From: a virus
Virus record (IMG/VR): IMGVR_UViG_3300029857_000010
Length of the DNA: 45,791 bases
Direction: 5' to 3' (one strand)
Shown: positions 4,601-45,791 of the stretch, one piece after another
Layout of the letters: the number at the start of each line of letters is the position of its first letter
How positions within the stretch are numbered: position 1 is the first letter of the stretch
Position numbers and translations under genes: made by a program
The notes under the pieces: generated by a model
Database searches by the model: none
Seen by the model: the letters and a program-made list of their open reading frames with translations, nothing else
Told to the model about the DNA's origin: nothing

Positions 4601-7600
4601 CATAGCTCTTTCGCTAGGTGAAGTCAAAATATCCTGTGCCATAGCATCGCCGCTGTCATAGCCTAAGCTGTCGGCCACCCAGTCAAACAGTTCTCTCTGC
4701 TCGTTAGACAAGGCACGCTTTTTGCTCATCTCCACAAGGTCGACTTTATCCGGATTAGTTTCAAGCTCATGCTTCAAGGCTTTAAGCTCGTTAAGCTCCG
4801 TAAGTTGTTCACCCTCTACCAACGTTTCGGCAATCTCTTTCAAGCCTTCTTCGCTTTTGAGCTTTGCTCTGTCACCGCCGTTGCGAATGTAGTTTCTCGC
4901 CCAGTTATCCTGCACGTCGCTACCCTCATTCTCATTGACGGTATAACCTTCGACAATCTCTCTTGCCATTTCATAGCCGCTGGCATAGCCGTTTTCCTCT
5001 GCTATCTGGTCAAAGAGTTCTTTTTGCTCCTGCGATAATTGGTTGCGCTTACTTTCTTTTACCAAGTCGACACCTTCGGGGTCTGTTTCAAGTCTATGTT
5101 TCAAGGCTTGCAGTCTGTCCAGCTCATCTACAATATGCTTAAAGTCTGCCTTAATTTCAGCGTCGCCATAATCTAAACCGGTGCTACGCAAATCGTAGTA
5201 ATCCGCTATATCTTCGCCTCTTGCAATCTTTTCAGCAATTCTTCTGCGTCCTTTTTTACTGGTCAAGTCGCTTACGCTGCCGCCGTAGTCATGAACGTAT
5301 CTTGATACCCAGTTGACATTACGAATACTGTCACCTGCTTCATGGAATACAAGGCCTTCAATATCCGCTTGCTCTAAAGCTCGCTTAGTCCAATGACGTT
5401 TTCCGTCCTTGCCTATCTCACCAAAATCAACCAAGACTGCGCTTTGGTCCGGTATGCCTGCAAAGTCATTTGCATACTTGCCTTCTGTTCTGTTTGTTGC
5501 GGCGAAGTAGCCCCACTTGCCATTGATAAAAAACGCACGCTCACTCTTGACTGTATCTTGATATTCCGCAAGCTCACTTTCTATTCTGTTAGCAATCGGA
5601 TTTAAAATATCGTCAATAGCTCCGTTTGTATCTTTTAATAATTCGTTATAGTTTATACGTTCATTGCTATAAATATATTTTCTTGCAAGCCTACGCGGAT
5701 TAGCTTCTATTGTTTCCCATTCGTTGATTTTCTGCTTGAAGTTAGCATGAGCCATGCCGTGCTCATCAACAACAAATGTAGGATTGGTTACAGTTTTTTG
5801 TCGTGACTTGCTAAACATAGCAATCAGCATATCTTCGGCATTTGCAACACGCTCTTTAGAAAGTGTGCCGTATGTGTCGACTTCTGCTTGAAGATACTCA
5901 ACTATCGGATTGAGTATATCGTCAATGCTGGCGTTAGTATCGTTCAGCATATCATTATAGTTTGGCAGTACGCTTCCTAAAACGTGCCTGTACTTTCTTG
6001 CTATAATTGCAGGATTGGCAAGCTTTGTTTTGCGCCATGGAGTATCCGAATTATTAGCATGAGCCATGCCGTGCTCATCGTCTATAAAGTGCGAATCAAC
6101 AACCTTAACTTCCTTACCAAACTCATAACCTACCTGGTGTCTTGCACGATTGACAAGCTCCAATGATACTGCTTCTTCAATCTGCGGCCGTATTTCTTCG
6201 ATGAAAGCAGCCTTTTCAGCTCTGCGCTTTGCGCTGAAATCAGCCATTGCTCGTCTTGTCAGAATATCCACGGCCTTGTCTTTAGCCTTCAAGATTTTAT
6301 CCTGCAAGGCTTTTTTATTTTGGTCTGATAACTTGGATGTTATATTCTCTGGCAAGCCGCCGAACATGCCCTCCATGCGTGCCATAACTTCAATTTCTTC
6401 ACGGCACGCCAACATTCTGTCAAATACTTGCCGTACTTCCGGCGTTAATTCTGCCGCATTTTCGCTTCTTGCTATCTTGCTATAAATAGCTGATAACCAA
6501 TTAGCGAATCTCTGGAACACTCCGCGCAAGCCAACACTAGGCGCTTTGCCTTCCATGATGTAGGTTTCAAATGCTTCTGCCAGCTTTTCATGCCCGGCTC
6601 TCTTTGCTTCAACGTCACCGCTTGCCCATGTTTCAGCATCAATGCCTGCATACTCCATGAGTTTTTTTGCATCAGCATTTAGTCTTGTGTTGCTGGGGTC
6701 TGCCAATGCTTCGTTAATCATGGTTTCCACAAAGTAGTGTCCTGTTTCGTGGATAACTGTACTTGCATCTGCGCCCTTAAAAAGCGTGATAACATAAGTA
6801 CCATCATCCATTGGGGAAATCATGCCTTTATCTTTCAGTGTACCATTGACAATTTTTTGTTGCTTGTAATTATCTGCTTTTTGTGATACACTATTAGCAA
6901 AAGAGGACGTTTTGTTTGAGATACTGGGCTGAGCCTTGAATTGCTCGGAACCCGAGGGCTTGAACGCGTCCTCTATTTTTTTATACTCACTTTCGTTAAA
7001 AACATTATGATTATAATATGATAATGATTTATCATTATGTTCTCTTACTGTAACAACTACATAACGTTTTTCACCATTAACATTCAGTGCAGAATGAATA
7101 TAATAAAAATTCTCGTCTGAATGTTTTTCTTTTTGCGGCGCAGATTCTGTAACGAAATTACCATTCTCCATAATTTCACGTAAATAGCGCAATGCAAAAA
7201 GTTTTTCTTTTTTAGCGGAAGTGTGTTCCATTTTCTTTCTGCCACTTGTGCCAAATTTAATATTATTTTCTTGATACCCTTTATCTATTCTAATATCACC
7301 CAATACACCATTATGAACGCTCGTGCCTTGCAAGTTGTCCCTATACCATGCAAAAGCCTTTTTCTGCAAGCTCTTCAAATCTGAATAGTGTCCCATCTCA
7401 TTTCCGGTAATATTAGTAGTATAGAATTGCTCTTTTTTAAGCACTCCTCCCTTGCTAAACCAGCCATTCTTTTGTTTAGCTTTGCCGCCATCTTCAAAGC
7501 GCAGCTTATTCTTTTGCAGCCACGCAGCAGGATTTTCGGGGTCTGCAATAAGCGCGCGGCTCTCCAATACTAAACGCAAATTACCGGCATGAGATTTATT

Positions 7601-9064
7601 CATACCGGCTTTAGTAGCGCTGCCTACAATAGCGTCAAGTTCTGCATCAAGCTCCGTACTTGCTTGCCTGGTTAAGTTGTAGCCTTCTCGCAGTTCTTTG
7701 CGCGTCTTTGCACCACCGTCCGACAATTCGCCGTTACTGTCAAAATACATATTGTCTTTCGTAGCTTCAAACAATGCATTGTCCTTAGCCATTGCCGCCG
7801 TAAACTTGCCGCGGCTAATATCAATATCCTGCCCCAGCTCCGCCGCAGTTGCCACTTCTTCCGCTGTCACACCTAACTCGTCAAAAAGTTTATTGTTATT
7901 GCTAGTCTGCTTGTAGCCTTCCAAGTCCTGTGCAGATACTGTTACTGTATCGTCCTCAAAGTTAGGATTATTCGCTTCAATTTCAGCCGCCGCACGTTCC
8001 GGGTTAATGCCTGTTTCTTTGATTCGTTCAGCATCCGCTACTAACTTCGCCTTACGTTCTTCGTTAGCTTTTAATGCGACGTGCTCAACAACGCTGTCAA
8101 CTGCAACGCTTACGCCGCTAACACTACCGCCAAGAATAGCACCAATAAGGCCGCTATATCCTGCTTCCTTCAAGTTCTGCTGCCAGTTCTCGCCCCACTT
8201 CTCTGCAAGTTTGGCAGTGCTTGCGCCGGGGTTCTTTGCCCATAAGTCCGTAGCTTGCTCCGGGAATTCCTGCAATGCTTCGGTAACACCTTCTTCAAGG
8301 CCACGTTTGGTAACTTCCCATATCTTAGTTTTCAGTCCGCTACCGGCAGGCATCTTTTTAAGCAGTCTGCCAAGCGGCAGTTCTTCTAATACTGCCTGCG
8401 GGATTGCATTCATCAAGCCAGCCTCCGCTGCTCTGGTTGCGCTTACGCCCTCTTTGCGCAGTCGCAGGTATTGTTCGCCGCTGATGTTTGCACCATTGTA
8501 AAGCATACTGATAGCGTGTACAGTTTTTGCACCTGCACCGGCAGCACCTACACCTTTAGTCAGTGCAAGCTGTACTAAAAGCTGAATGCCGTTTTCAGCC
8601 AAATCATAACCAAGTTGCCCAGCCGCCGTATCAGCCTTAACTTCTTCGCGCTTCAAAATCTCATCGGTGACATAGCCTAAAGCCTTGCTGATGTTCTCTG
8701 ATTGGTCATACTCTTTAACAACATTCTTGTCACCCTTATGAGCTTCAATATTAGCGTCAACGGTCGCTTTAGCCGCACCGAATAAGCCACGCACCGAACC
8801 TTTAAGGCCGTTCATTACGGCAGTGCCTATGCCTGGTTTATCATCGTTGATAATGCTGCTAGTATCAATCGTCGGTGAGCTATTGCTCTGTACTGCCTGC
8901 GAAAACTTATTGTACTCATCGTCGCTCATTTTTTGCAGGTCATAATAGCCTAGAGTTTCAGCAGGTGACAAGCCGCTGTCAATATCAGCAATAAAGCCAT
9001 AATTAGCATATTCCTTTTTTGCTTTTAATCTGCGGTCGAATTCGTCTAAAGGTTCATTAGCCAT
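1628..9064 (-). CDS. giant 2478-aa virion/ejection protein (polyvalent-type) with an HExxH zincin-like metallopeptidase motif and internal tandem duplications; in the position of T7 gp16
   Basis: Single uninterrupted 7.4-kb ORF. HETGH motif at nt 6737-6751. Two pairs of internal repeats, about 5537-5773 vs 5849-6103 and 4616-4798 vs 4940-5122. Start codon abuts the stop of the upstream SLT gene. Confidence 0.75.
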   Translation of the reverse strand: MANEPLDEFDRRLKAKKEYANYGFIADIDSGLSPAETLGYYDLQKMSDDEYNKFSQAVQSNSSPTIDTSSIINDDKPGIGTAVMNGLKGSVRGLFGAAKATVDANIEAHKGDKNVVKEYDQSENISKALGYVTDEILKREEVKADTAAGQLGYDLAENGIQLLVQLALTKGVGAAGAGAKTVHAISMLYNGANISGEQYLRLRKEGVSATRAAEAGLMNAIPQAVLEELPLGRLLKKMPAGSGLKTKIWEVTKRGLEEGVTEALQEFPEQATDLWAKNPGASTAKLAEKWGENWQQNLKEAGYSGLIGAILGGSVSGVSVAVDSVVEHVALKANEERKAKLVADAERIKETGINPERAAAEIEANNPNFEDDTVTVSAQDLEGYKQTSNNNKLFDELGVTAEEVATAAELGQDIDISRGKFTAAMAKDNALFEATKDNMYFDSNGELSDGGAKTRKELREGYNLTRQASTELDAELDAIVGSATKAGMNKSHAGNLRLVLESRALIADPENPAAWLQKNKLRFEDGGKAKQKNGWFSKGGVLKKEQFYTTNITGNEMGHYSDLKSLQKKAFAWYRDNLQGTSVHNGVLGDIRIDKGYQENNIKFGTSGRKKMEHTSAKKEKLFALRYLREIMENGNFVTESAPQKEKHSDENFYYIHSALNVNGEKRYVVVTVREHNDKSLSYYNHNVFNESEYKKIEDAFKPSGSEQFKAQPSISNKTSSFANSVSQKADNYKQQKIVNGTLKDKGMISPMDDGTYVITLFKGADASTVIHETGHYFVETMINEALADPSNTRLNADAKKLMEYAGIDAETWASGDVEAKRAGHEKLAEAFETYIMEGKAPSVGLRGVFQRFANWLSAIYSKIARSENAAELTPEVRQVFDRMLACREEIEVMARMEGMFGGLPENITSKLSDQNKKALQDKILKAKDKAVDILTRRAMADFSAKRRAEKAAFIEEIRPQIEEAVSLELVNRARHQVGYEFGKEVKVVDSHFIDDEHGMAHANNSDTPWRKTKLANPAIIARKYRHVLGSVLPNYNDMLNDTNASIDDILNPIVEYLQAEVDTYGTLSKERVANAEDMLIAMFSKSRQKTVTNPTFVVDEHGMAHANFKQKINEWETIEANPRRLARKYIYSNERINYNELLKDTNGAIDDILNPIANRIESELAEYQDTVKSERAFFINGKWGYFAATNRTEGKYANDFAGIPDQSAVLVDFGEIGKDGKRHWTKRALEQADIEGLVFHEAGDSIRNVNWVSRYVHDYGGSVSDLTSKKGRRRIAEKIARGEDIADYYDLRSTGLDYGDAEIKADFKHIVDELDRLQALKHRLETDPEGVDLVKESKRNQLSQEQKELFDQIAEENGYASGYEMAREIVEGYTVNENEGSDVQDNWARNYIRNGGDRAKLKSEEGLKEIAETLVEGEQLTELNELKALKHELETNPDKVDLVEMSKKRALSNEQRELFDWVADSLGYDSGDAMAQDILTSPSERAMVRQEIDKAVNRRFPDFMQEREQAREAAREALYNDESGEVVALEQQLIDEALNEISDKDIKQKERENIAKVRKQNADNFAKRYIQTLPAGEVMKPRRFAMAERRAAANANKAAKAGLLEEAAMYKQQQMINHALYREAVKAKHQIESARKYVKKQMHSKKEVWGTEQHFFQMCALLERMGYHRKDFNTNGREVQSLSEYIAEMQAKYGDEIISMPEFVLNPNNDLTNAPQLSLANYMDVIDALKNIRAIAKQDTKMNKIAAGEAFEQVKADTIAHLQELPVEYEAEIGSDSKKSLRKRIIDWPKNIIATLRNADNFFLMMDNWTEEGYFTREFYNKINHCADMESTMLESYQNELIDALQKWEPDKKAGIAHDTRIYYEELGGSADKHALIAMLCNLGSDSNAARLCSQKPVGVKNSDIWVEESELIGKEEAMLQTKQNLIEFLCKHLTKADIAYAQARINAASKFWPMLAEVNRRTKGFEPPKIEASPLVLKLASGESVVFEGGYFPLERDTRTGSMPGKFDRIDSTEEGSRPPQRTLTTDTSASKARTGGKYPVDLSRGSEVTAVKKYIHDICYRETMLDFRKILNDEDIYRNMVERLGDTNVRLLREFLQACANPYGSRTAYMAETTFTKIADALRNVATNAAIMFNFKTIMQNTTNIFLYGNSTKGFTHADAFRALLRSFTGEGRAEVDAICAKSAFMRERSRVPDITLRDIQNRSDLNPIEKRTLKYGAMLLGYTDMMTAKPVFAEAYMKKINEGKTEQEALDFANTVIRRTLGSSRIHDVSSMQRNSGLFRLFTMFQGFFNTQFNQWDREAHIVKRLWNSGEKKEMAERLIAFAGAKFLGVCLLNVAMAELSLTAPFEKDKDGYRKLSKELINYPLSMGGPYGQFANIGIQCLLGMKNYGYRLTAAQGLIDKGMTVYRRLGKVARGEEGTGELIEQSAYVGGAFLGVPAGIFNIIFNSIDIAAGDMDFELQDIYKRRPKSERKKD

Positions 9065-29690: not shown

Positions 29691-30274
29691 TTCAGCAGCT
29701 TACTTTTACAAGGCTCATTATGCTTGCGGCTGTACGTAAAGTCGTTCATGTAGCATTGCAGGATACGGAATTGATTGTCAATAGCGTTATCATTCAAGCC
29801 AATCTGCCGGCCGTACTCAAACACTGCTTTATCCTGCGGCATATACGGCATAATGAGCCGGTGTTCCGTCAACTTTGCCGCCGTCCATTTCAGCAGCATA
29901 CTGTTCAGCCTATCAGCAAGCGGCTTGCCGTCGCTCAGCTTCTCCATGTTGCAGCGGTTTATATTCTCCTGCACATGAGCTTCTTCTGCCTGCTTCAAAG
30001 CAGCCTGCATCAGCGCCGGGCTGATTATATTCACGTTAAGGCCGTTCGCACCGGTCAAGGTAAGCGCTATCTGCTCTGCCTTCTCCCACCGGTCAAGGCC
30101 TATATTTTGCTGATTAAAAATTCCTGCCCAAAGGTTTACCGTTTCGGACAAGATTCTTTTCGCTTCTTCCAGGCGGTCAAAGCCGGGCCGTATATCCTGC
30201 GGCATCCGCTTGCCTGCCTGTTGCAGTTTAACAATCGTTTGGGCTATTCTCTGCTGTTGCAGCATCGCCCTCAC
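29654..30274 (-). CDS. hypothetical protein downstream of the replisome organizer, a possible replication accessory or loader-like protein, 206 aa
   Basis: ORF placed immediately after the replisome organizer. No Walker motif seen. Confidence 0.4.
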   Translation of the reverse strand: MRAMLQQQRIAQTIVKLQQAGKRMPQDIRPGFDRLEEAKRILSETVNLWAGIFNQQNIGLDRWEKAEQIALTLTGANGLNVNIISPALMQAALKQAEEAHVQENINRCNMEKLSDGKPLADRLNSMLLKWTAAKLTEHRLIMPYMPQDKAVFEYGRQIGLNDNAIDNQFRILQCYMNDFTYSRKHNEPCKSKLLKCGDTLTLEVLA

Positions 30275-31067
30275 CTCCTACATCTCCGTAAAGTTCGTTT
30301 ACCAGGTCCATGCCAGAATATCCGGCACCTGCATTCTGCTTCTTGCTGTTGCCGCTGGCATAGTTTCTTGCTACGGTCTGCACATACGCAAAGTTTCTTG
30401 CGCCGTGCTCAACCGCCGCTAATATTCCCTGTTCAACGGCAGCCTCACCAACCTCACCTAACAAGGCCTGCAGTTTTTCTCCGACGATTGGAGTAAGCGG
30501 CATCATGTTTTTCTCCCATAAGGCAAAAATTTCAGTATGCGTTTTTTCATCGTCATTTCTTTTAGGATGATGATAATCATCCTTTTCTTTATCTCTATAC
30601 TCTATACTCTTATCTCTAATCTCTGTCGGACATTTTGTCCCTTTTTCTGGGGACATTTTGTCCCCAGTTTTCGGGACATTTTGTCCCTTTTTATTTTGAC
30701 GTTGCGTCTTTTTCTTCGTCGCTGATTCTGACGCACTACCGCTGCCGGTCATATTAGCAACCTCCGGCAAGTAGTTTTCGCCTTTATCGTTCTTCTCAAT
30801 AAGGCCAATTTGTTCAAACAAAGCAAGCGCACTTTCGACAACTTCAATATCAAATTGCGTCTGTTTAGCGATTGATTCAGCCGTATGCTGAATGGTCATT
30901 TTGCCGACCTGCCGAACAAGCGCGCCGTCAGTTTTCAGCGACTTTAAGCACAGTTTAAGGTATAAGAGTACGTATTTTTCGCCGTTTTCCTGGTCCTCTA
31001 ACCACTCAACAACATCACTTTCAAAGAAGTTTTCGTTGAGTTTTAACCAATAATACCTGCCAGCCAT
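30228..31067 (-). CDS. phage replisome organizer with a DnaD-like C-terminal domain, 279 aa
   Basis: N-terminus MAGRYYWLKLNENFF…LLYLKL is the replisome-organizer signature. C-terminus IFALWEKNMMPLTP…FAYVQTVARNY is the DnaD-domain signature. Iterons are embedded in the linker. Confidence 0.7.
   Translation of the reverse strand: MAGRYYWLKLNENFFESDVVEWLEDQENGEKYVLLYLKLCLKSLKTDGALVRQVGKMTIQHTAESIAKQTQFDIEVVESALALFEQIGLIEKNDKGENYLPEVANMTGSGSASESATKKKTQRQNKKGQNVPKTGDKMSPEKGTKCPTEIRDKSIEYRDKEKDDYHHPKRNDDEKTHTEIFALWEKNMMPLTPIVGEKLQALLGEVGEAAVEQGILAAVEHGARNFAYVQTVARNYASGNSKKQNAGAGYSGMDLVNELYGDVGGEGDAATAENSPNDC
30628..30687. repeat. three iterons GGGACATTTTGTCCC (half-sites GGGACA/TGTCCC) at 22-23 bp spacing inside the replisome-organizer gene, followed by AT-rich tract 30688-30725; a candidate origin of replication
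   Basis: Copies at 30628-30641, 30649-30665 and 30673-30687. Adjacent T-rich stretch ctttttattttgacgttgcgtctttttcttc. Confidence 0.6.
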
Positions 31068-31379: not shown

Positions 31380-31468
31380 TTTGTCCCGCTCCTTTCAAAT
31401 TTTTCGGGGACATTTTGTCCCAAAGTTAGGGGACATTTTGTCCCCGCTTTTCGGGACATTTTGTCCCC
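31375..31468. repeat. second cluster of the same GGGACATTTTGTCCC motif: three full copies at 23-bp spacing plus one partial, in the intergenic/promoter region
   Basis: Copies at 31406-31421, 31429-31445 and 31453-31468; partial copy at 31375-31387. Confidence 0.6.
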
Positions 31469-31479
31469 AATGTTTTTTG

Positions 31480-33034: not shown

Positions 33035-33975
33035 TTTAACGTGAACCTCATACTAGGCTTGCCAACCTTGGCATACTTTTCGTACACGTCCGGCAGGTCT
33101 TTTTTCAGTGCCTTTTTGTCCAGCGTTACTCTTCCGGCAATCTGTATATAGGTAATTTTTCTATCCATAAACACGCCGCTTTCGCTGCCGTTCAGCATGA
33201 GCTTCAAGGCGTTTTGTGCCTGCGCTAACTGTTCTTCCAGTACCTTTTTCGTTGCCGTCAGTCCGTCAATACACTTAATGTATTGCTCTGCTGCGCTAGG
33301 CAGCGCGATACTGTCAACCGCTAACTTATCCTTATTCATTTTGTCAATGGTTGCGGCAGTGCTTTCGCTGCCGTCAACCTCCGGCGGGATATTGCTCTGG
33401 AGGTTATTCCAGAATATAATCGCTTGCGCTCTCATATCCGAAATAAACTCATCGTTGCGCGGAATTTCTTTCCATACAAAATGATTGCCGCCGATTAAGC
33501 AGGCAATATACCACTTCTCGCAACCGGTAATCATCATGTACCATTGACACTGGCAATAGTAGCTGTCTGGCAGCTCGTCACCGTCCCAATCTTTCGACTT
33601 AAAGCCGTTCGCGGTCTTACATTCAAGGCCTGCGCTTTCACCCACCACTAATCTGTCGACGTTCGCAAGCATGAAATCATAGCTTTCATCTTGCAACGTG
33701 CCGCACTTGCGTACCTTTTTACCGGTCAGCTCACAGAATCTGTCAGCTACAACCTGCTCAAGCACCGTACCCCAATATACAAATTCGTTGTTAGAGAGGT
33801 CTTCCGGTTCAACATCGCCATGCTTTTCAGCGTAGAGTGCGTAAGCGCTCTTCCAGGGATTTAGTCCCATGATGCAGGCAATATCACTGCCGCCGATACC
33901 ACTATTGCGGACGCGTTCCCACGCCACGCGGTCAGCGGCTTGCTCAACTGTCATAATCAGTTTACCCTTCATCAA
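33031..33975 (-). CDS. YqaJ-type (lambda Exo-like) recombination exonuclease
   Basis: N-terminal motif GIGGSDIACIMGLNPWKSAYALY is typical of the YqaJ domain. Lies upstream of recT. Confidence 0.7.
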   Translation of the reverse strand: MMKGKLIMTVEQAADRVAWERVRNSGIGGSDIACIMGLNPWKSAYALYAEKHGDVEPEDLSNNEFVYWGTVLEQVVADRFCELTGKKVRKCGTLQDESYDFMLANVDRLVVGESAGLECKTANGFKSKDWDGDELPDSYYCQCQWYMMITGCEKWYIACLIGGNHFVWKEIPRNDEFISDMRAQAIIFWNNLQSNIPPEVDGSESTAATIDKMNKDKLAVDSIALPSAAEQYIKCIDGLTATKKVLEEQLAQAQNALKLMLNGSESGVFMDRKITYIQIAGRVTLDKKALKKDLPDVYEKYAKVGKPSMRFTLK

Positions 33976-34352
33976 GCCTCATCCTCCATTTCTTCTAACA
34001 TGTGCTTTGTAGAGAGTGCTGCATAACGAGCAGCGTCTTTATCGCATAATGTCATTGCGACGCGATAAATCACATCTTTACTGAGTTGCGGCGCATCGTA
34101 TTTTTTCTCAGCAATTTCCGCAAGCGCCAGCAAATGGCTCATAGTAGCAGCTACGAGAATTTCAAAATCTTCGGGGTTCTTTTTGATGATAGTCACACTC
34201 ATACCGACGAGCACTTTTATAAACTTCTCGCTGATTTTCTCAAAAGTGCCTCTGACACCTACAATGCTTTTGCTATCGTCAGCGGCAAGCACTACGCCAC
34301 CCTTGCAGAGAAAATTTTCAACCGCCCATTGGAAAATTTCTTTGTTGTTCAT
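33972..34352 (-). CDS. hypothetical protein, 126 aa
   Basis: ORF overlapping the exo start. Confidence 0.45.
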   Translation of the reverse strand: MNNKEIFQWAVENFLCKGGVVLAADDSKSIVGVRGTFEKISEKFIKVLVGMSVTIIKKNPEDFEILVAATMSHLLALAEIAEKKYDAPQLSKDVIYRVAMTLCDKDAARYAALSTKHMLEEMEDEA

Positions 34353-34381
34353 AAAATCAATCTCCTTTCAAAAAAATAAAA

Positions 34382-34711
34382 TTAAATTTCTTTATATAAC
34401 GGAATAACAATTTGTTGTCCCGCTTGTAACTCTTTACCTATGAGATTGTTATGCTTGCGAATATCAAACATCAGCTCGCGACAATCTCTGTACTTGTCCT
34501 GCTCTTTCATGTGAGCATTTGCAATATCCCACACTGTCTCCCCTTCGCTTACATAGTAAGCAACCAGGGTTCTGCTATAACTAGGGAACAAAAAACCATG
34601 TGCTCTAACGGCCAGCTTTGCGGCGCTGCCACCAGTCAGAAAGACAAGACCGGCAAGAAGCATAGCAGTGATGACAAACGCTTTCACTAAGCCTTTAGTA
34701 GTCTTACTCAT
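34382..34711 (-). CDS. membrane-anchored LysM-domain protein, about 109 aa from the SD-supported start
   Basis: LysM signature YYVSEGETVWDIANAHM…LIGKELQAGQQIVIPL follows an N-terminal TM segment. SD AAAGGATGG precedes the MSK start. Confidence 0.55.
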   Translation of the reverse strand: MSKTTKGLVKAFVITAMLLAGLVFLTGGSAAKLAVRAHGFLFPSYSRTLVAYYVSEGETVWDIANAHMKEQDKYRDCRELMFDIRKHNNLIGKELQAGQQIVIPLYKEI

Positions 34712-34863
34712 TTGCCCCATCCTTTCATAACAATCTTGCGCCAGCACTCGCCGCCGCTGCACACGGTAACAAGCAGGCCGCTTTCCTTATCTACTACTTT
34801 AGAGAAGTTCATGTGCGACAAGTCTTTACCGCACACAGCGCATTTTCTCTTTTTCCTAGTCAT
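34708..34863 (-). CDS. small zinc-ribbon protein, 51 aa
   Basis: SD GGAGGT 5 nt upstream. CxxC…CxxxxC pattern. ATGA overlaps on both sides, indicating translational coupling. Confidence 0.45.
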   Translation of the reverse strand: MTRKKRKCAVCGKDLSHMNFSKVVDKESGLLVTVCSGGECWRKIVMKGWGK

Positions 34864-35078
34864 TCGTACCTCCAAACTTCTGCCTCTAAGTCAAGAGGCG
34901 TAATCCCCATGTACTCAGCAAACTTTGCGGGGCTGATATGATAAGCCCAACTCTTTTTACTGCTGGCGTGAATTGCCACGCCGAACGGTAACGCGCCACT
35001 ACGCAGGCCCATACGCACAAACATTTCGCTTTTCTGCATAAGCCGCGCGGCTGTTTTAATAGGAACGTTTCCAAGCAT
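34860..35078 (-). CDS. excisionase-family / Xis-like HTH DNA-binding protein, 72 aa
   Basis: Pattern IKTAARLMQKSEMFVRMGLRSGALPFGV matches the Xis/AlpA-type HTH. SD AAAGGAGG. Confidence 0.5.
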   Translation of the reverse strand: MLGNVPIKTAARLMQKSEMFVRMGLRSGALPFGVAIHASSKKSWAYHISPAKFAEYMGITPLDLEAEVWRYE

Positions 35079-35079
35079 C

Positions 35080-35205
35080 TTACTGCCTCCTTTGCTTTAG
35101 AAAACGCATTGCCGTTTCGTAGCGTTTTTCAGCTCTTTCAATAGCTTCTGCGCGTTCTTTCTTTTTAGCTTTTTCTTCCAGCGTGTCACACCGGATTGCG
35201 CCCAT
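35080..35205 (-). CDS. small hypothetical protein, 41 aa
   Basis: Short ORF coupled to the downstream gene. Confidence 0.3.
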   Translation of the reverse strand: MGAIRCDTLEEKAKKKERAEAIERAEKRYETAMRFLKQRRQ

Positions 35206-35296
35206 GATTCTTTTCAAATCTTTGTCGGTACTACTATTCAAAGCACACCTCCTGCCCGCGCCGACGCTAGGCGCGGGGCTTGTTTCTATTTCAGCC

Positions 35297-35461
35297 CTAC
35301 TGGCCGACTACCTGTTGCTGCTGTTCACACAGTCTTACGGCAGCTTGCAAGCCCTGCATATATGCGGCCGCAACCATAAGGCCGTCCGCTTTAAGTTTGG
35401 ACATGTCAACCGCCGTGCGCTTTACGCGCTTTTCAGTGAATACTTCTTGCTTTACTTCCAT
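35297..35461 (-). CDS. small hypothetical protein, 54 aa
   Basis: ORF with SD-like GAAAGGGG. Confidence 0.3.
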   Translation of the reverse strand: MEVKQEVFTEKRVKRTAVDMSKLKADGLMVAAAYMQGLQAAVRLCEQQQQVVGQ

Positions 35462-35523
35462 TATTCTCGCCCCTTTCCATCTCTCCCGTGCTATAATAGG
35501 TATTACAGAACGGAGGTGATATT

Positions 35524-35700
35524 ATGTTTATTGAAATGCCTAAAAAATGTCCAATTACCGGAGGTATGGCTACCGGTATTAAAATTGATTGTCCAGGCTG
35601 CGCTTTTTATATTGACCAGGAAAAGCAGTGCCGGATAATCTCTACAGATAACAACATCAAGCTTCTGCTTGCTCTTCTTCAAAAACAACAGCAACGTTAG
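35524..35700 (+). CDS. small Cys-rich (zinc-ribbon-like) protein on the opposite strand, 58 aa
   Basis: Strong SD GGAGGTG 7 nt upstream. Extended -10 TGCTATAAT at 35489-35497. 3' end is convergent with and overlaps the 35657..35851 gene. Confidence 0.4.
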   Translation: MFIEMPKKCPITGGMATGIKIDCPGCAFYIDQEKQCRIISTDNNIKLLLALLQKQQQR

Positions 35701-35851
35701 AATTACATTCGATTACGTAGCTACAGAAGTCAAGCATCTGCTTTGCTGCTACCTGATTCTGACCGTTGAGCAAACCAAGAATTTGTTTAGCAGTCTTTTT
35801 TTCTTCTGCTGTCAGCTTTTGGCTTTCGCTCAGCTCATTAAAGCTATACAT
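35657..35851 (-). CDS. first early-operon protein, 64 aa, hypothetical
   Basis: SD GGAGGG. First gene downstream of the early promoter. Confidence 0.5.
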   Translation of the reverse strand: MYSFNELSESQKLTAEEKKTAKQILGLLNGQNQVAAKQMLDFCSYVIECNSNVAVVFEEEQAEA

Positions 35852-35918
35852 CCTCTTTCCCTCCTTCCGATGTTTTTGAAAATCGTTTTTTTCTTTTTAA
35901 AAAACATCCTGTGTTATT

Positions 35919-35947
35919 ATTCTACATCCTAGCGCTGTGTTTGTCAA
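35919..35947 (-). promoter_or_regulatory. early (lytic) promoter TTGACA-17-TAGAAT on the minus strand
   Basis: -35 at complement(35942..35947), -10 at complement(35919..35924). Inverted repeat 35869-35909 in the leader. Confidence 0.5.
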
Positions 35948-35980
35948 TCTATTTTTTGTTTTTTAAAAACATTATTTTTC

Positions 35981-36009
35981 TTGATTTTCCTACCTATATG
36001 TAGTAAAAT
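35981..36009 (+). promoter_or_regulatory. repressor-gene promoter TTGATT-17-TAAAAT
   Basis: -35 at 35981-35986, -10 at 36004-36009. The palindrome TGTTTTTTAAAAACA (35957-35971) lies between the divergent promoters. Confidence 0.45.
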
Positions 36010-36054
36010 AATCGTGCAATGTTTGGTGGAAACACTAGAAAGGAGTGAGCAACA

Positions 36055-36420
36055 ATGAAAGAGCGTTTAAAGCTATTGCGCAAAGCTTTAAAACTAAATC
36101 AACAGGAGTTTGCGGATAAAATTCAGGTCAATCGTTCTACCGTTGCTGGTTATGAACGCGGCTCAACGAATTTATCAGAGCGAACAATCACAGACATCTG
36201 CCGTGTATTTTACGTTAATGAAGATTGGCTACGTACTGGCGAAGGTGAAATGTTCCGTGCCAGGAATACAACCAACGAAGAATTAGCACTGCAAGTTGGC
36301 AAACTGCTAAAGACAGATGATGAGTTTACCAAGAATCTATTTTTGGAATATCTCAAACTGCCGCCCGAAATGAAAACTTTATTTGAAGATTTCGTTCACA
36401 ATCTGGCGAAAAGCAAATAA
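36055..36420 (+). CDS. CI-like XRE-family repressor, 121 aa
   Basis: HTH NQQEFADKIQVNRSTVAGYERG. Transcribed divergently from the early operon and adjacent to the integrase. Confidence 0.65.
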   Translation: MKERLKLLRKALKLNQQEFADKIQVNRSTVAGYERGSTNLSERTITDICRVFYVNEDWLRTGEGEMFRARNTTNEELALQVGKLLKTDDEFTKNLFLEYLKLPPEMKTLFEDFVHNLAKSK

Positions 36421-36430
36421 CCGGCAAATA

Positions 36431-36470
36431 AAAAAATCCCCCGTACCATCCGCGGTACGGGGGATTTTGC
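36431..36470. terminator. bidirectional rho-independent terminator
   Basis: 12-bp stem ATCCCCCGTACC/GGTACGGGGGAT flanked by an A-run and a T-run. Confidence 0.7.
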
Positions 36471-36783
36471 TATACCTTTTAAATTAGTGCAGCAAATAAA
36501 AAATCAATCTTCGTCTACAAGTCCAAGGATAAAGCTGTATATGACAGCCAGCGTTTCTTCATCTTTCACTTCCTGCAATATACCGATTATCCTACTCAAT
36601 AAAACCTGCATTATGCCCTCCATTCAAATTAAAGCAGGCCTACAACACTAAGAACCTATTTATATTCTACCACTAAACTCGCTCATTATAAAGAGTTTTA
36701 GGAAAAGTAATTATTTGAATTGCAGTTTACATTTAAATGTGCTATTATTAAATCAAATAAAGACAGAAAGTGAGGTGGTTAAC

Positions 36784-36879
36784 ATGGTTGACAGTGACAC
36801 TATAAGCCTACAGATTAAGAACCTCTATCAAACAATTTTCGCTGTGCCATTGGCGCAAGGCGTGACATGGGCAGTCTAA
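36784..36879 (+). CDS. 31-aa small peptide ORF with its own SD
   Basis: SD GTGAGGTGG 5 nt before the ATG. Followed directly by a terminator. Confidence 0.3.
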   Translation: MVDSDTISLQIKNLYQTIFAVPLAQGVTWAV

Positions 36880-36900
36880 AAAGCTGCCCATTATTTTTTT
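36869..36900 (+). terminator. rho-independent terminator
   Basis: Stem GGGCAG…CTGCCC followed by attattttttttatt. Confidence 0.6.
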
Positions 36901-36924
36901 TATTACAAAGGAGAGTGCTTGTAA

Positions 36925-37511
36925 TGAGATTTAATCCAATAGAGTTTTTCTATGAGTTGCTTAACGGAAATCCTTATCTTATTGGTGTGCTAATCTTTAC
37001 CGTGTGTATATCTCTTATTCCTAATTCGTTATGCGAAACTATATTAGAACTGCCCCAAAAAATAAAAAAGATGTTTGCAAAGAAGCCTGTTGATGCACCA
37101 ATTCAACAGGTCAACCAAAATTACGACTTCGTTCCGTCTGACGATAATTATTTTACTTTCAAAGGCAGAATAGGAAGAAAAGTTTTTATTAAAAGAACCG
37201 CTTTTGCATATTTAGGAATTATTCTGGTAGCGTTATTCTTTGCATGGTTGACAGATTCAACAAGTAAAATAGAAAAAAATCCTCTATATATCGCATTAAT
37301 ACTTGCCTTTATGGTTCCGTTTACCCTCTTCTTATACGCCAATATGAACAGACGCTTTCATGATATTGGCAAAAGCTCAAACTGGACATTGGCAATGTTC
37401 CTTGCAAGTAATACTGTTGCGCCGATTTATTTTCTTGCACTGCTTTATTTATTTTGCAAAAAAGGTAATCCCGACGCAAACGAATATGGCCCAAATCCAT
37501 TGCAGCAATAA
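36925..37511 (+). CDS. DUF805-family inner-membrane protein (moron between repressor and integrase), 195 aa
   Basis: DUF805 signatures GRIGRKVFIKRTAF…, NRRFHDIGKSSNWTL and GNPDANEYGPNP. SD AAAGGAGAG. The track's longer start at 36867 lacks an SD. Confidence 0.65.
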
Positions 37512-37532
37512 GCAACGATATTTTCAAACAAA

Positions 37533-37582
37533 AACAACAATAGCCCACGCCGTACACGTGAGCTATTGTTGCTGTTGTTTTT
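37533..37582 (+). terminator. rho-independent terminator after the DUF805 gene
   Basis: About 12-bp stem AACAACAATAGC/GCTATTGTTGCT followed by GTTTTTG. Confidence 0.6.
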
Positions 37583-37933
37583 GCCGAACCGTAAACACAA
37601 TTTTGAAAGGAGGTTGTTTAGCATAAAGAATCTGAACACATGAAAACCTAGAAAAAAGGAGAGCTAAGGAAAATCAAGATTGCATCTTCATTTCAACACC
37701 CCGAAAAAATGAAGGTACTATAGTGCTTGTATCAGTGTTCGCGGAAACTGCGCCGTCTACTGCGCCTACACCGGACCGCACAGCCGCCCCGAACACCTAC
37801 TTATATTATATCATGATAATATGTTTAATTTGTGAATAATAACTTCATATAAACGCTTGAAAGAATTAATACACAGTTTATCCACAACTGTTGCAAAAAA
37901 TGCAACAACTGAAAAAGGAAGGAGCAACTAAAC

Positions 37934-38953
37934 ATGAAATTACCTAACGGCTATGGCTCTGTTACGAAGCTGACCGGGAACCGGCGGCGGCCGTATATGG
38001 TCCGCATTACAACGGGCTTTACCGATGAAGGTCGCCAGCTTATGAAAATACTAGGCTACTATGCAAAGCGCACGGAAGCCCTTAATGCCCTGGCTGAATA
38101 CAATCAATCACCCTATGATGTTGAAAGCGTAGGCTTGACGTTTGCCCAGGTACACGAGAGATGGGAAGCCGCAACCTACGTTGACGGCAAAGAGCAATCT
38201 AACCAATATAAGGCAGCATATAAGCGCTGCGCGCCACTATGGGATATACCGTTCAAAGATATTAAGACTGCGCAATTTCAGCAAGTCATAAATGACTGCG
38301 ACAAAGGCTACGCTACCAAGAAGGCAATCCGAATCGTATGTAATCTGATGGCCAAATATGCGCTTGCTAATGATATTATAGTAAAAAATTATGTTGAGCT
38401 TACTAGCCTACCGCCCCAGGTTGAAAGCAGAATACACAATCCGCTTACTAAAAAGGAGCTTGCTATATTATGGGAAAACAGCAAGGATATAAAAGTGCAA
38501 GCCGTGCTTATCCTCTGTTATACCGGCATGCGCCCCACCGAGCTAGTGAAGGTTGAGAAGGCGAACGTCGACTTTGAAAATAAATTCTTCGTTGGCGGCA
38601 TGAAAACTGCGGCAGGCCGCGGCAGAAGAATTCCTATTGCTGATAAAATATTCGACTTCTTCAAGGATGCTTGTGAACGCAGCACCGGCGAATATATCTT
38701 TTCTGATGAACGGGGCAAGAATATATCCTATGACGCATACCGCAGCAGATATTGGGAACCGGTAATGAATATGTTTAAGATGGACCACTTGCCCGGTGAC
38801 GGCCGCCACACTTGCGCAAGCCTGCTTGATGATAAAGACGTAAATGTAAAAATCAAGAAGCTAATTCTGGGGCACGCCAGCTCCGATGTAACGGAAAGGG
38901 TTTACACTCATAAGACGTTGGAACAACTATTAGAGGCTATAAATTTAATATAG
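37934..38953 (+). CDS. int: tyrosine recombinase / integrase with AP2-like arm-binding N-terminus
   Basis: N-terminus MKLPNGYGSVTKLTGNRRRPYMVRIT is the AP2-like arm-binding domain signature. Catalytic region has TGMRPTEL and LGHASSDVTERVYTH (H-x-x-R…Y). Confidence 0.8.
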   Translation: MKLPNGYGSVTKLTGNRRRPYMVRITTGFTDEGRQLMKILGYYAKRTEALNALAEYNQSPYDVESVGLTFAQVHERWEAATYVDGKEQSNQYKAAYKRCAPLWDIPFKDIKTAQFQQVINDCDKGYATKKAIRIVCNLMAKYALANDIIVKNYVELTSLPPQVESRIHNPLTKKELAILWENSKDIKVQAVLILCYTGMRPTELVKVEKANVDFENKFFVGGMKTAAGRGRRIPIADKIFDFFKDACERSTGEYIFSDERGKNISYDAYRSRYWEPVMNMFKMDHLPGDGRHTCASLLDDKDVNVKIKKLILGHASSDVTERVYTHKTLEQLLEAINLI

Positions 38954-39200
38954 TTTGTTACATACGTGTTACATATGTGTTACATACCTGTTACATACGT
39001 AGCTTATTTTCTATGAGCTGTGGACACTTTTTGAAAATAACGGAAGCAAAGAAAAAGCCAGCAACCTGCATGGTTACGGGCTTTTCTTGCGATTTGTGAT
39101 TGATTGAGATAGCCTTCTCTATTAACGTTTGGTAAATTGAGCACCCTTATTTTAAGCCATTCTTTACGCTATTTGTTACATACCTGTCACATACGATATG
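38954..39200. other. putative attP region with 11-bp arm-type direct repeats (TGTTACATAC-like)
   Basis: Four tandem 11-bp copies at 38954-38997 and two more at 39174-39195, flanking about 175 bp of noncoding sequence. They lie immediately 3' of int. Confidence 0.55.
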
Positions 39201-39237
39201 TACTTTATATGTGCTCATATCGCTTTAAGGTTTACAG

Positions 39238-39687
39238 TTAGGCTTCCATCTGCGCCAGCCAAGCGTCAAGAACTTTTCCTTCTGATGCGTCCGGGTCGTT
39301 TATATACGCTTTTGCCATACGCACGTAGTTGTTAGTGTCGCTTCCAAGAATTTCAGCAAAATCACTATGCAGCATATTCATAACATAGTACCAATCAGCT
39401 TTACAACGTATTCCCTGTTGGTCTGCAAATTGGCTAGTCTGTTCAAACGTCCAATGTTCGCCACACGTACCGTCAATGTTCTTCATTTTGGAAACTGCCT
39501 TTTTTGCAAGCTCTTCGTCAAAATGCGGGCCGTATGCTACACAATGCAGTTTATATGCAGTATCCCAAAATAACCGAGGGCAACGGCCGCGCACTTCTTC
39601 TAACGCTTCACAAACTATTTCTTCCATCTCTTCTATCTTTACTGGGTCAGCGCTTACCTTCTCCCAATATTTCTTTAGTTTATGCAT
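39238..39687 (-). CDS. hypothetical protein, 149 aa, last gene before attP
   Basis: ORF at the terminal moron position. Confidence 0.45.
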   Translation of the reverse strand: MHKLKKYWEKVSADPVKIEEMEEIVCEALEEVRGRCPRLFWDTAYKLHCVAYGPHFDEELAKKAVSKMKNIDGTCGEHWTFEQTSQFADQQGIRCKADWYYVMNMLHSDFAEILGSDTNNYVRMAKAYINDPDASEGKVLDAWLAQMEA

Positions 39688-39699
39688 AACGTCGCCCCC

Positions 39700-40122
39700 T
39701 TACGCCATTTTTACAACGCTCAAAGATACATTGCTGATAGTGCCTGCTGCCGTAGCCTGCACCTGCAACGCTGCATTATTATCAATCACACAGCAACTAG
39801 GCAATACTCTAAGCAGTGTAGCAAAGGAGATATTATAAGTATCACCTGTAGCACCGGTTACTGTTGCTTCTGCTCCCGGTACTGCTACACCATTACGAAG
39901 AAGATTTAAACCTATATCGCCTGCCGCAGTCGGGGTAATATCAGCGTTCAAAGTCACAAGGTAAAGTCCCTGGATAAGGTTAACGCTTGTACTTCCTGCC
40001 GTATGCTTAATAGATACACCAGTCAAAAGATTGTTAGTAGGGAAACCGACAAAGCCGTTCGCTGTTACAGTCTGCGCCGCCGTTGCTACCGTTGTTAATG
40101 CGGATTTCTGATTGCAAATCAT
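39700..40122 (-). CDS. BclA C-terminal-domain / ExsF-BxpB-like (C1q/TNF-fold) protein, 140 aa
   Basis: Segment GLYLVTLNADITPTAAGDIGLNLLRNGVAVPGAEAT…SLSVVKMA resembles BclA-C GFYKITVIANTATASVLGGLTIQVNGVPVPGTGSS…SIIIEKVA. Confidence 0.5.
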   Translation of the reverse strand: MICNQKSALTTVATAAQTVTANGFVGFPTNNLLTGVSIKHTAGSTSVNLIQGLYLVTLNADITPTAAGDIGLNLLRNGVAVPGAEATVTGATGDTYNISFATLLRVLPSCCVIDNNAALQVQATAAGTISNVSLSVVKMA

Positions 40123-40203
40123 TTGTTTTCACCTCTTTATTAAAGCAATAGGGACGGCTTGCACCGTCCCTTGCAGTGCAGTTAATGCACATAACTTATT
40201 ATT

Positions 40204-44991: not shown

Positions 44992-45791
44992 TATGCACCA
45001 CTTCCTAACTTATGAGCCTGTACAATGCTTACAATACCATTAGGGTTCTTTATCATCCAGACAGTCAGAAGCGTACCAGAGCCGGAAATAGCAATATCGC
45101 TTGCGCTACCTATATATGTCATAGTACCTGCACCACTGATAGTCAGAGCATGGTCAGCATCAGCAGTAAAGTATGCAGAGAATACAATGGATTCATACGT
45201 ACCAAGCAACATAGCAAAATTAGAGAGATTAAGAGTAAAATCACCATTTGTTGTATACCACATTGTATCAGTTACCGGTGTATCAGTAGTGCCTTCTACA
45301 TAATAGCCGGTATGGCAGGCACGGAAGGTCTTTGTGTTATAAAACTCCTGCACTGCCGTCCATGTATTTTCAGAGGATGTACTTACACCACCAGTAGCCG
45401 TAATAGTTACATTGCCACTCGCATCGGGTGCTGTGCCATTGACAGATTTAACCACACCACTAATATCAGTTTTCTTAGCGTAAGTGGATGTGATTACATT
45501 GCCATCACCATCATGGGTTGCTGCCCTAGCCGTGCCACTATAATTCACAGCGTTGATTGAACCAACAAATTGTGTACCTTCACGCCACCTTATATTAGTA
45601 GCTCCACCCGATAAAGCAAAACCAGAGAGAACATCTGCGATATTCATTTTGTCAGCTAAGGCACTGTATATAACCTTGTTCTGTACAGGGTTAGTCGAAG
45701 TGCTGGACAATGAGCTATCCACAGTAATATTAGTAATATCTGTTTTCTTAGCATAGGTATCAACAATGACATTACCTGCACCATCATGAAG
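44991..45791 (-). CDS. tail fibre protein, C-terminal portion; continuous with 1..1488 across the circular junction (45693-45791 duplicates 1-99)
   Basis: Reverse frame is open from 45791 down to the stop at 44991. Protein reads …VDSSLSSTSTNPVQNKV…, identical to the end of the 1..1488 segment. Confidence 0.8.
   Translation of the reverse strand, partial: LHDGAGNVIVDTYAKKTDITNITVDSSLSSTSTNPVQNKVIYSALADKMNIADVLSGFALSGGATNIRWREGTQFVGSINAVNYSGTARAATHDGDGNVITSTYAKKTDISGVVKSVNGTAPDASGNVTITATGGVSTSSENTWTAVQEFYNTKTFRACHTGYYVEGTTDTPVTDTMWYTTNGDFTLNLSNFAMLLGTYESIVFSAYFTADADHALTISGAGTMTYIGSASDIAISGSGTLLTVWMIKNPNGIVSIVQAHKLGSGA
45693..45791. repeat. exact 99-bp duplicate of positions 1-99: circular-closure overlap
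   Basis: Identical sequence at both window ends. Lies inside the tail-fibre ORF. Confidence 0.9.

Follow-up and report, generated by a model that had tools for sequence, protein, structure and literature searches.

Organisation of the locus

The DNA analysed here (the window, 45,791 bases of a viral genome) begins and ends with the same 99 bp, positions 1-99 being an exact copy of 45693-45791. This overlap shows the assembly to be circular or terminally redundant, with a length of ~45,692 bp; the sequence represents an excised or replicating phage genome, not a prophage. A gap of 284 bp separates the convergent 3' ends of an integrase gene (int) on the plus strand and a DUF7841 gene on the minus strand, the latter of which appears to close the late operon of a phage with terminase, portal and capsid genes. 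Comparison of positions 37800-40200 with 50,697 phage records by BLASTN returned no match. The features of this region are as follows.

36055-36420, plus strand: HTH_3 repressor-like gene, upstream of int
36867-37511, plus strand: DUF805 membrane protein gene, between the repressor-like gene and int
37934-38953, plus strand: tyrosine integrase gene (int), 339 amino acids (PF00589, phrog_1)
37934-38131, plus strand: Int residues 1-66, putative arm-binding N-terminal domain (N-domain)
38956-39195: whole probable attP, ~240 bp, made of P arm, terminator, core and P' arm
38956-38999, plus strand: P-arm array of proposed arm-type Int sites: four 11-bp direct repeats TGTTACATAC(N), placed end to end
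39053-39085, both strands: G+C-rich hairpin with T-runs on both sides (predicted bidirectional terminator), from inverted repeat, RNA fold and terminator scan
39090-39107: TGCGATTTGTGATTGATTG, a conserved element in the stretch from hairpin to core
39121-39132: common core ATTAACGTTTGG, identical in attP, attB, attL and attR
39174-39195, plus strand: P'-arm array, two contiguous 11-bp direct repeats in the orientation of the P arm
39238-39687, minus strand: last gene of the late operon, DUF7841

The slot held by the DUF805 gene is occupied by other small genes in the related prophages L003, L005, L009, L036 and L120, and we therefore regard it as a variable 'moron' position. Further away, a 23-bp unit with the palindrome GGGACATTTTGTCCC forms two clusters of three copies each, at 30628-30692 and 31401-31471. 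One of them lies inside or beside a replication-organiser gene (a Phage_rep_org_N homologue, 30228-31067, minus strand) and the other between a 102-aa ORF and a RecT-like gene; both clusters are candidates for origin iterons or for sites bound by a dimeric regulator. The structural region includes a 2,478-aa ORF (1628-9064, minus strand) adjoining ORFs of 699 and 934 aa. A Gly_rich_2 domain was detected in a relative of the 934-aa ORF and the portal is of the PF12236 type; the 2,478-aa ORF probably encodes a tail or injection protein of a podovirus-like virion.

The integrase and its N-terminal domain

The assignment of Int as a tyrosine integrase was supported by a match to PF00589 over residues 173-328 (E 5.4e-14, 52.8 bits against a cut-off of 27.1) and by a match to the phrog_1 integrase family (E 9e-46). 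Residues R200, K224, R291, H314 and Y324 are invariant across 38 aligned full-length homologues, and the N-domain is conserved in all 38. Residues ~67-165 were assigned to a core-binding domain and residues ~166-339 to the catalytic domain. The AlphaFold model of the protein has a mean pLDDT of 88.8. Within it, residues 1-60 are predicted to form three strands (8-12, 21-29 and 35-43) followed by a helix (46-58), with pLDDT values of ~85-93. Three strands and a helix make up the topology of the arm-binding domains of the lambda and Tn916 integrases. When searched with Foldseek, the full-length model matched full-length lambda Int (1z1b, 1z1g and 5j0n; E ~1e-10, 345-365 aligned columns), while its core-binding and catalytic domains matched Tn1549 Int (6en2 and 6en0; E ~5e-11) and also Xer recombinases.

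The sequence-only reading had described the N-terminal domain as an AP2-like arm-binding domain. The predicted three-strand and helix fold agrees with that description, as do matches to PF14657 (Arm-DNA-bind_4) in 10 of the 38 homologues, which span residues ~21-59 and all fall below the gathering cut-off of 22.3 bits (best E 1.4e-4; P0032, for example, scores 19.0 bits over residues 24-59). The family assignment itself fared less well. The Int of the window gave no match to a Pfam arm domain even at E<=10, and matches of phmmer to PDB sequences were restricted to the catalytic and core-binding parts. A model of the isolated N-domain (pLDDT 81.8) gave no Foldseek match in the PDB at E<=0.001, with no lambda, Tn916 or AP2 domains listed, and a sequence profile of the N-domain found nothing meaningful among PDB sequences. 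Because the search with the isolated domain was null, the label draws on topology and on the sub-threshold Pfam matches; 'AP2-like' is a reasonable description of the fold that the model resembles, rather than a statement of family membership.

Two arrays of 11-bp repeats flank the intergenic region

Six copies of TGTTACATAC(N) are present on the same strand, four at 38956-38999 and two at 39174-39195, and none was found elsewhere in the 45.8 kb. The individual units are given below.

38956-38966: P-arm unit 1, TGTTACATACG
38967-38977: P-arm unit 2, TGTTACATATG
38978-38988: P-arm unit 3, TGTTACATACC
38989-38999: P-arm unit 4, TGTTACATACG
39174-39184: P'-arm unit 1, TGTTACATACC
39185-39195: P'-arm unit 2, TGTCACATACG

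Tandem Repeats Finder reported a period of 11 for both arrays, with 4.1 copies in the P arm and 1.9 in the P' arm. The clusters of four and two 11-bp repeats proposed beforehand were thus recovered, the register of the first being shifted by 2 nt (from 38954-38997 to 38956-38999). The P array begins 3 nt past the integrase stop codon (TAG, 38951-38953), following a TT dinucleotide, and so lies directly 3' of int as had been proposed. The interval between the two clusters, which had been put at about 175 bp, measures 174 bp (39000-39173). The P array ends 121 bp before the core and the P' array starts 41 bp after it; four units lie 122-176 bp to the left of the core and two 42-63 bp to its right. 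The arm motif differs from the core and flanks the crossover site on both sides within a few hundred base pairs.

One reading of the repeats is chance low-complexity sequence that happens to lie near attP. When one mismatch to the 10-mer was allowed, eight matches were found in the 45,791 bases, six of them the array copies; in 100 shuffles of the sequence the count averaged 2.84 and never rose above 7. With a weight matrix built from the six copies, the copies themselves scored 17-20 bits; across both strands of the 45.8 kb, the best of all other sites scored 10.7 bits. The shuffles and the weight-matrix scan exclude an origin of the repeats by chance. The same scan of both strands of the whole window found no inverted copy of the 11-bp repeat.

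Integration junctions and the host site

An exact look-up placed Int in 223 blocks of public assemblies, and ten long metagenome contigs carry, ~170 bp downstream of int, rpsI (S9), rplM (L13), truA and ECF-transporter genes. The contigs match the window exactly or almost exactly through ..CCTTCTCTATTAACGTTTGG (39132), that is, through ..TATTAACGTTTGG, and past 39132 they diverge into AGAACTGGCTAGC.., the reverse complement of the 3' end of rpsI (..QFSKR, stop). The P-arm array is retained at this int-side junction. The far end of the prophage was reached by a look-up of the DUF7841 protein, and reads host ..GACAGTAAACCAAAA, then ATTAACGTTTGG, then phage TAAATTGAGCACC.. (in short form, host ..GTAAACCAAAA, ATTAACGTTTGG, phage TAAATTGAGC..). 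Homology to the window resumes there at 39121 and runs through both P' repeats into the DUF7841 gene. Since the junctions L001 and L011 lie on the same 82.7-kb contig, the two kinds of junction belong to one prophage.

The att sites compared were attP of the window, prophage junctions L001-L018 and empty attB sites L019-L035. Only ATTAACGTTTGG is shared by attP and both junctions. The empty attB, CCAAAAATTAACGTTTGGAGAACTGG, was reconstructed from the junctions and searched for in one genome per species; it was found in 17 reference genomes, 14 of them labelled Phascolarctobacterium (P. succinatutens YIT 12067 included) and 3 otherwise labelled. In YIT 12067, the only empty site that was read, the core occupies L035 4528-4539 and rpsI, on the minus strand, 4529-4921. 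The two therefore overlap by the final 11 nt of rpsI, stop codon included, with one base of the core left over; the core is the reverse complement of that stretch (..AAA CGT TAA) and one further nucleotide. Together, the junctions and the empty site establish that attP, attB, attL and attR all exist in public data. A tRNA/tmRNA scan found no such gene in the window, and the attB is accordingly not a tRNA gene.

These results bear directly on the earlier prediction that the crossover core would lie between the repeat clusters. Both junctions and the empty site place the identity at 39121-39132, inside that interval, and none of the recovered junctions maps elsewhere, the outcome that had been named as contrary to the attP assignment. 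The host sequence had been expected to share 15-40 bp with part of 39000-39170: an identity was indeed found in this interval, with a length of only 12 bp.

The core is flanked in the window by CTCTATT (39117-39123) and AATTGAG (39135-39141), which form an imperfect inverted repeat centred on CGTTTGG (39126-39132). The arrangement is CTCTATT(AA)-CGTTTGG-(TA)AATTGAG, with 5/7 or 6/7 matching positions depending on the register. At the same positions the related phage L036 has the perfect arrangement AAATTAA-CGTTTGG-TTAATTT. Because the inverted repeats centre on it, and do so perfectly in L036, we propose CGTTTGG as the 7-bp overlap between two core-type sites.

Two further observations were made on cores of this family. 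Contig L121, which carries integrase P0012, shows core variants back to back at ~2300-2374, TATTAACGTTTGG and then TTAACGCTTGCTAAATTG, and ends there; either two elements inserted in tandem at rpsI or a duplication of the core could explain this. Stretches of the rpsI 3' end longer than the 11 nt of the window are present in L120 (TTAACGTTTGGAGAACTGAGC, ~2680-2720) and L056 (TTAACGTTTCGAGAACTGG, ~2675-2700), and the length of attP/attB identity therefore varies within the family.

A predicted terminator and a conserved element within the P arm

Elements that insert at the 3' ends of genes generally reconstitute the gene. Between the P array and the core, the G+C-rich hairpin at 39053-39085 gave a predicted RNA fold of -22.0 kcal/mol (z -5.0) on the minus strand and -19.6 kcal/mol (z -2.5) on the plus strand. 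On the minus strand, which is the sense of rpsI, it was also matched by the terminator scan and is followed by UUUUUCUUU. The terminator hairpin of the host rpsI gene (L035; -22.5 kcal/mol, z -5.4) sits at the far end of the prophage after integration. In the integrated state rpsI would read into phage DNA that supplies its last codons, its stop codon and a terminator ~45 nt downstream. We infer that the hairpin at 39053-39085 replaces the displaced rpsI terminator and that its plus strand can terminate int.

The conserved element at 39090-39107 contains an 11-mer, TGCGATTTGTG, that is common to phage attP and to the host DNA just downstream of rpsI (L035 4487-4510). It is trailed by GATTG-like repeats and is found exactly or with one difference in L036, L119, L120 and L121. 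It may be left over from captured host DNA, or a host factor may bind there.

The attP layout is conserved in related phages

The same attP layout, with phage-specific repeats that match between the arms, was found in 11 related phages with an intact attP. In relatives whose Int is 39-72% identical to that of the window, 2-4 tandem 11-bp units directly follow the int stop codon and 2 units lie ~180-240 nt downstream. L036 (72%), L037 (57%) and L038 (52%) each have 3-4 contiguous 11-bp units after the stop and then a terminator hairpin, the units being TGTTACTTAT in L036, TGTTACATGTA/GGTTACATTCC in L037 and TGTCTATTAC in L038. L037 and L038 come from integrated copies at rpsI, L038 from one in the Anaerosinus massiliensis chromosome. 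The relatives with an intact attP from the viral collection (39-49% identity) each have a motif of their own, which recurs as a two-unit P' array.

Matching between arms was scored by the best 20-mer; a matrix based on the most-repeated P-arm 8-mer was uninformative, as it picked up a shared 5' half (TTGTTAC) or A/T-rich words. The best 20-nt match of a P arm to the P' arm of its own phage averaged 17.8/20, compared with 14.7/20 between different phages. Its own P' arm was the top match in 8 of the 11 phages, and the exceptions have near-identical motifs. Both the core and a P' unit were located in six phages (the window, L036, L119, L120, L040 and L046), and in every one of them exactly 41 bp separate the core end from the first P' unit, with spacers of differing sequence. 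The P array and the core are separated by either 122/123 or 144/145 bp, values that lie two 11-bp units apart.

This conservation bears on whether the repeats are unrelated to recombination and serve instead as iterons or as operators for int or the late operon. Tandem 11-bp repeats do resemble iterons, and a role in transcription or termination is conceivable for an array that abuts the 3' end of int, where the terminator scan reported a weak terminator-like stem beginning at 38998. The replication module, however, lies 8 kb away (30.2-31.5 kb) and has repeat clusters of its own at 30.6 and 31.4 kb. Moreover, the two-cluster layout, the fixed 41-bp spacing and the P/P' matching are kept at 39-72% Int identity; a geometry conserved around the core is expected of intasome sites, not of operators or iterons. 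We therefore rejected iterons and operators, and with chance excluded as well, a function outside recombination strikes us as extremely improbable.

Natural chimeras of the integrase link the arm repeats to one of its domains. The relevant comparisons, with domain identities and arm motifs, are listed below.

Window and P0005: N-domain (1-66) 97%, catalytic domain (166-339) 70%; both arms GTTACATAC
P0005 and P0012: N-domain 61%, catalytic domain 95%; ACATAC versus ACTTAC
Window and P0006: N-domain 50%, catalytic domain 83%; ACATAC versus ACTTAT
P0007/P0012-type arm motif: GTTACTTAT

Judged from these sequences, the arm repeats follow the N-domain of Int and not its catalytic domain, in a set of related phages that are not phylogenetically independent and in which a linked accessory gene could in principle co-vary. 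In another reading, attP and the core are as mapped here but the 11-bp repeats bind an accessory protein, either an excisionase (recombination directionality factor, RDF) or an architectural factor of the phage or the host. Tandem direct repeats are typical of RDF binding sites, for instance the Xis sites of lambda, and the lack of a recognisable Pfam arm-binding domain in the Int of the window, together with the non-significant fold search for the isolated domain, would fit with this reading. Among the nine small ORFs of the early/lysogeny region (33972-37626), no excisionase-like Pfam or PHROG match was found. Known Xis sites are, however, usually confined to one arm, whereas here the identical motif is present on both. 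The motif also tracks the N-domain in chimeras whose catalytic domains have been swapped, and the strand-strand-strand-helix topology of that domain and the sub-threshold PF14657 matches of its relatives likewise point to Int itself. We consider binding by an accessory protein unlikely; most likely, the 11-bp repeats bind the N-terminal domain of Int. The arrangement of P and P' arms that had been read from the repeats is supported by the retained layout, the 41-bp spacing and the behaviour of the chimeras.

Proposed mechanism of integration

Taken together, it is very probable that 38956-39195 is the attP of a ~45.7-kb circular temperate phage of Phascolarctobacterium, that Int recombines ATTAACGTTTGG with the 3' end of rpsI, and that the repeats are arm-type Int sites. 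The core-binding and catalytic domains of Int would hold the core while the N-domain (residues ~1-60) binds the arm repeats, whose contiguous 11-bp units would align consecutive N-domains along the same face of the DNA. With the P arm (121 bp) and the P' arm (41 bp) bent, presumably by a bending protein, arm-bound Int could reach the core. By bridging arms and core, Int would fold attP into an intasome, as in lambda, which could then capture the bare attB at the end of rpsI. Strand exchange would most likely take place within the 7-bp overlap CGTTTGG, the exact cleavage positions being predicted from the inverted repeats, and two pairs of strand exchanges would yield attR (P arm, core, rpsI) and attL (host, core, P' arm). 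An excisionase is likewise expected to be involved. Integration would rebuild the last codons and the stop codon of rpsI from phage DNA, with the hairpin at 39053-39085 as the new terminator.

A wider proposal, which we put forward only tentatively and hold to be rather doubtful, is that Negativicutes phages compete for rpsI with an Int made of two exchangeable modules, one comprising the N-domain and the arm arrays and the other the catalytic and core-binding domains and the core, and that shuffling of these gives rise to orthogonal types. If this were true, such shuffling would create Int/attP 'incompatibility types', and prophages sharing one attB would be unable to excise or integrate each other.

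The phage is common and widespread in sequence collections, and its host is the gut bacterium Phascolarctobacterium, a member of the Negativicutes. The Int cluster holds about 2,100 member sequences, and those contigs that bear their origin in their names come from human-gut metagenomes. The analysis defines a complete integration module consisting of Int, an attP of ~240 bp, a 12-bp core and an attB at rpsI, which could become a single-copy integration vector. Related integrases that have distinct arm motifs and share one target form a natural panel of possibly orthogonal variants. They also offer a clean comparative case of arm-site specificity tracking the integrase N-domain; the mechanism is not new and follows a conventional lambda-type design.

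Comparison with known systems

In the literature searched, a limited collection, neither this phage nor an rpsI-targeting integrase from Negativicutes was found described, and the words attP, attachment site and integration site do not appear in a preprint on prophages of Negativicutes. Two reports (PMC4701971, PMC7487436) describe the 3' end of rpsI as a hotspot for the insertion of ICEs, IMEs, prophages and PICI-like elements in streptococci; GBSInt5 is one example of their tyrosine integrases. The streptococcal elements use the same end of the same gene as the present family, which resides in Negativicutes (Phascolarctobacterium and Anaerosinus), and the hotspot is thereby extended from streptococci to this group.

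The closest resemblance is to lambda. Both systems have a three-domain integrase, and the full-length model of Int matches the lambda structures 1z1b, 1z1g and 5j0n; sequence similarity to the lambda N-domain was not detected by phmmer or by searching PDB sequences with the N-domain profile. As in lambda, an attP of ~240 bp has a short core between its arms and an arm motif unrelated to the core, P' sites are contiguous and spaced by about one helical turn, the attP/attB identity is short and the overlap is likely to be 7 bp. The arm-type sites of lambda are P1, P2 and P'1-P'3, with P2 inverted relative to the others, whereas here six direct repeats form two contiguous arrays (4 + 2). Unlike in lambda, a protein-coding gene is targeted here, at its 3' end, a predicted phage terminator lies inside the P arm, and no Xis gene was recognised among the nine small ORFs.

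In the attP sites of mycobacteriophage L5 and of the P2/186 type, arm sites occur as adjacent pairs of direct repeats, spaced 10-11 bp apart, on both sides of the core. Our phage shares these adjacent direct repeats but differs from those phages in integrase lineage, in host and in target, which for them is a tRNA gene or an intergenic site. In Tn916, 11-bp direct repeats present in both arms of the transposon are bound by a three-strand domain at the N terminus of its integrase, and the core-binding and catalytic domains of the phage Int resemble those of Tn1549 Int (6en2 and 6en0). Tn916 and Tn1549 have low target specificity and tolerate heterologous overlaps, whereas the phage described here uses one specific site with an identical core. 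The architecture is thus that of a classical heterobivalent tyrosine integrase, as known from lambda, HK022, L5, P2 and Tn916. What is particular to this system is that all arm units are direct and contiguous (4 + 2), that the P arm carries a terminator predicted to serve the target gene, and that the target is the 3' end of rpsI.
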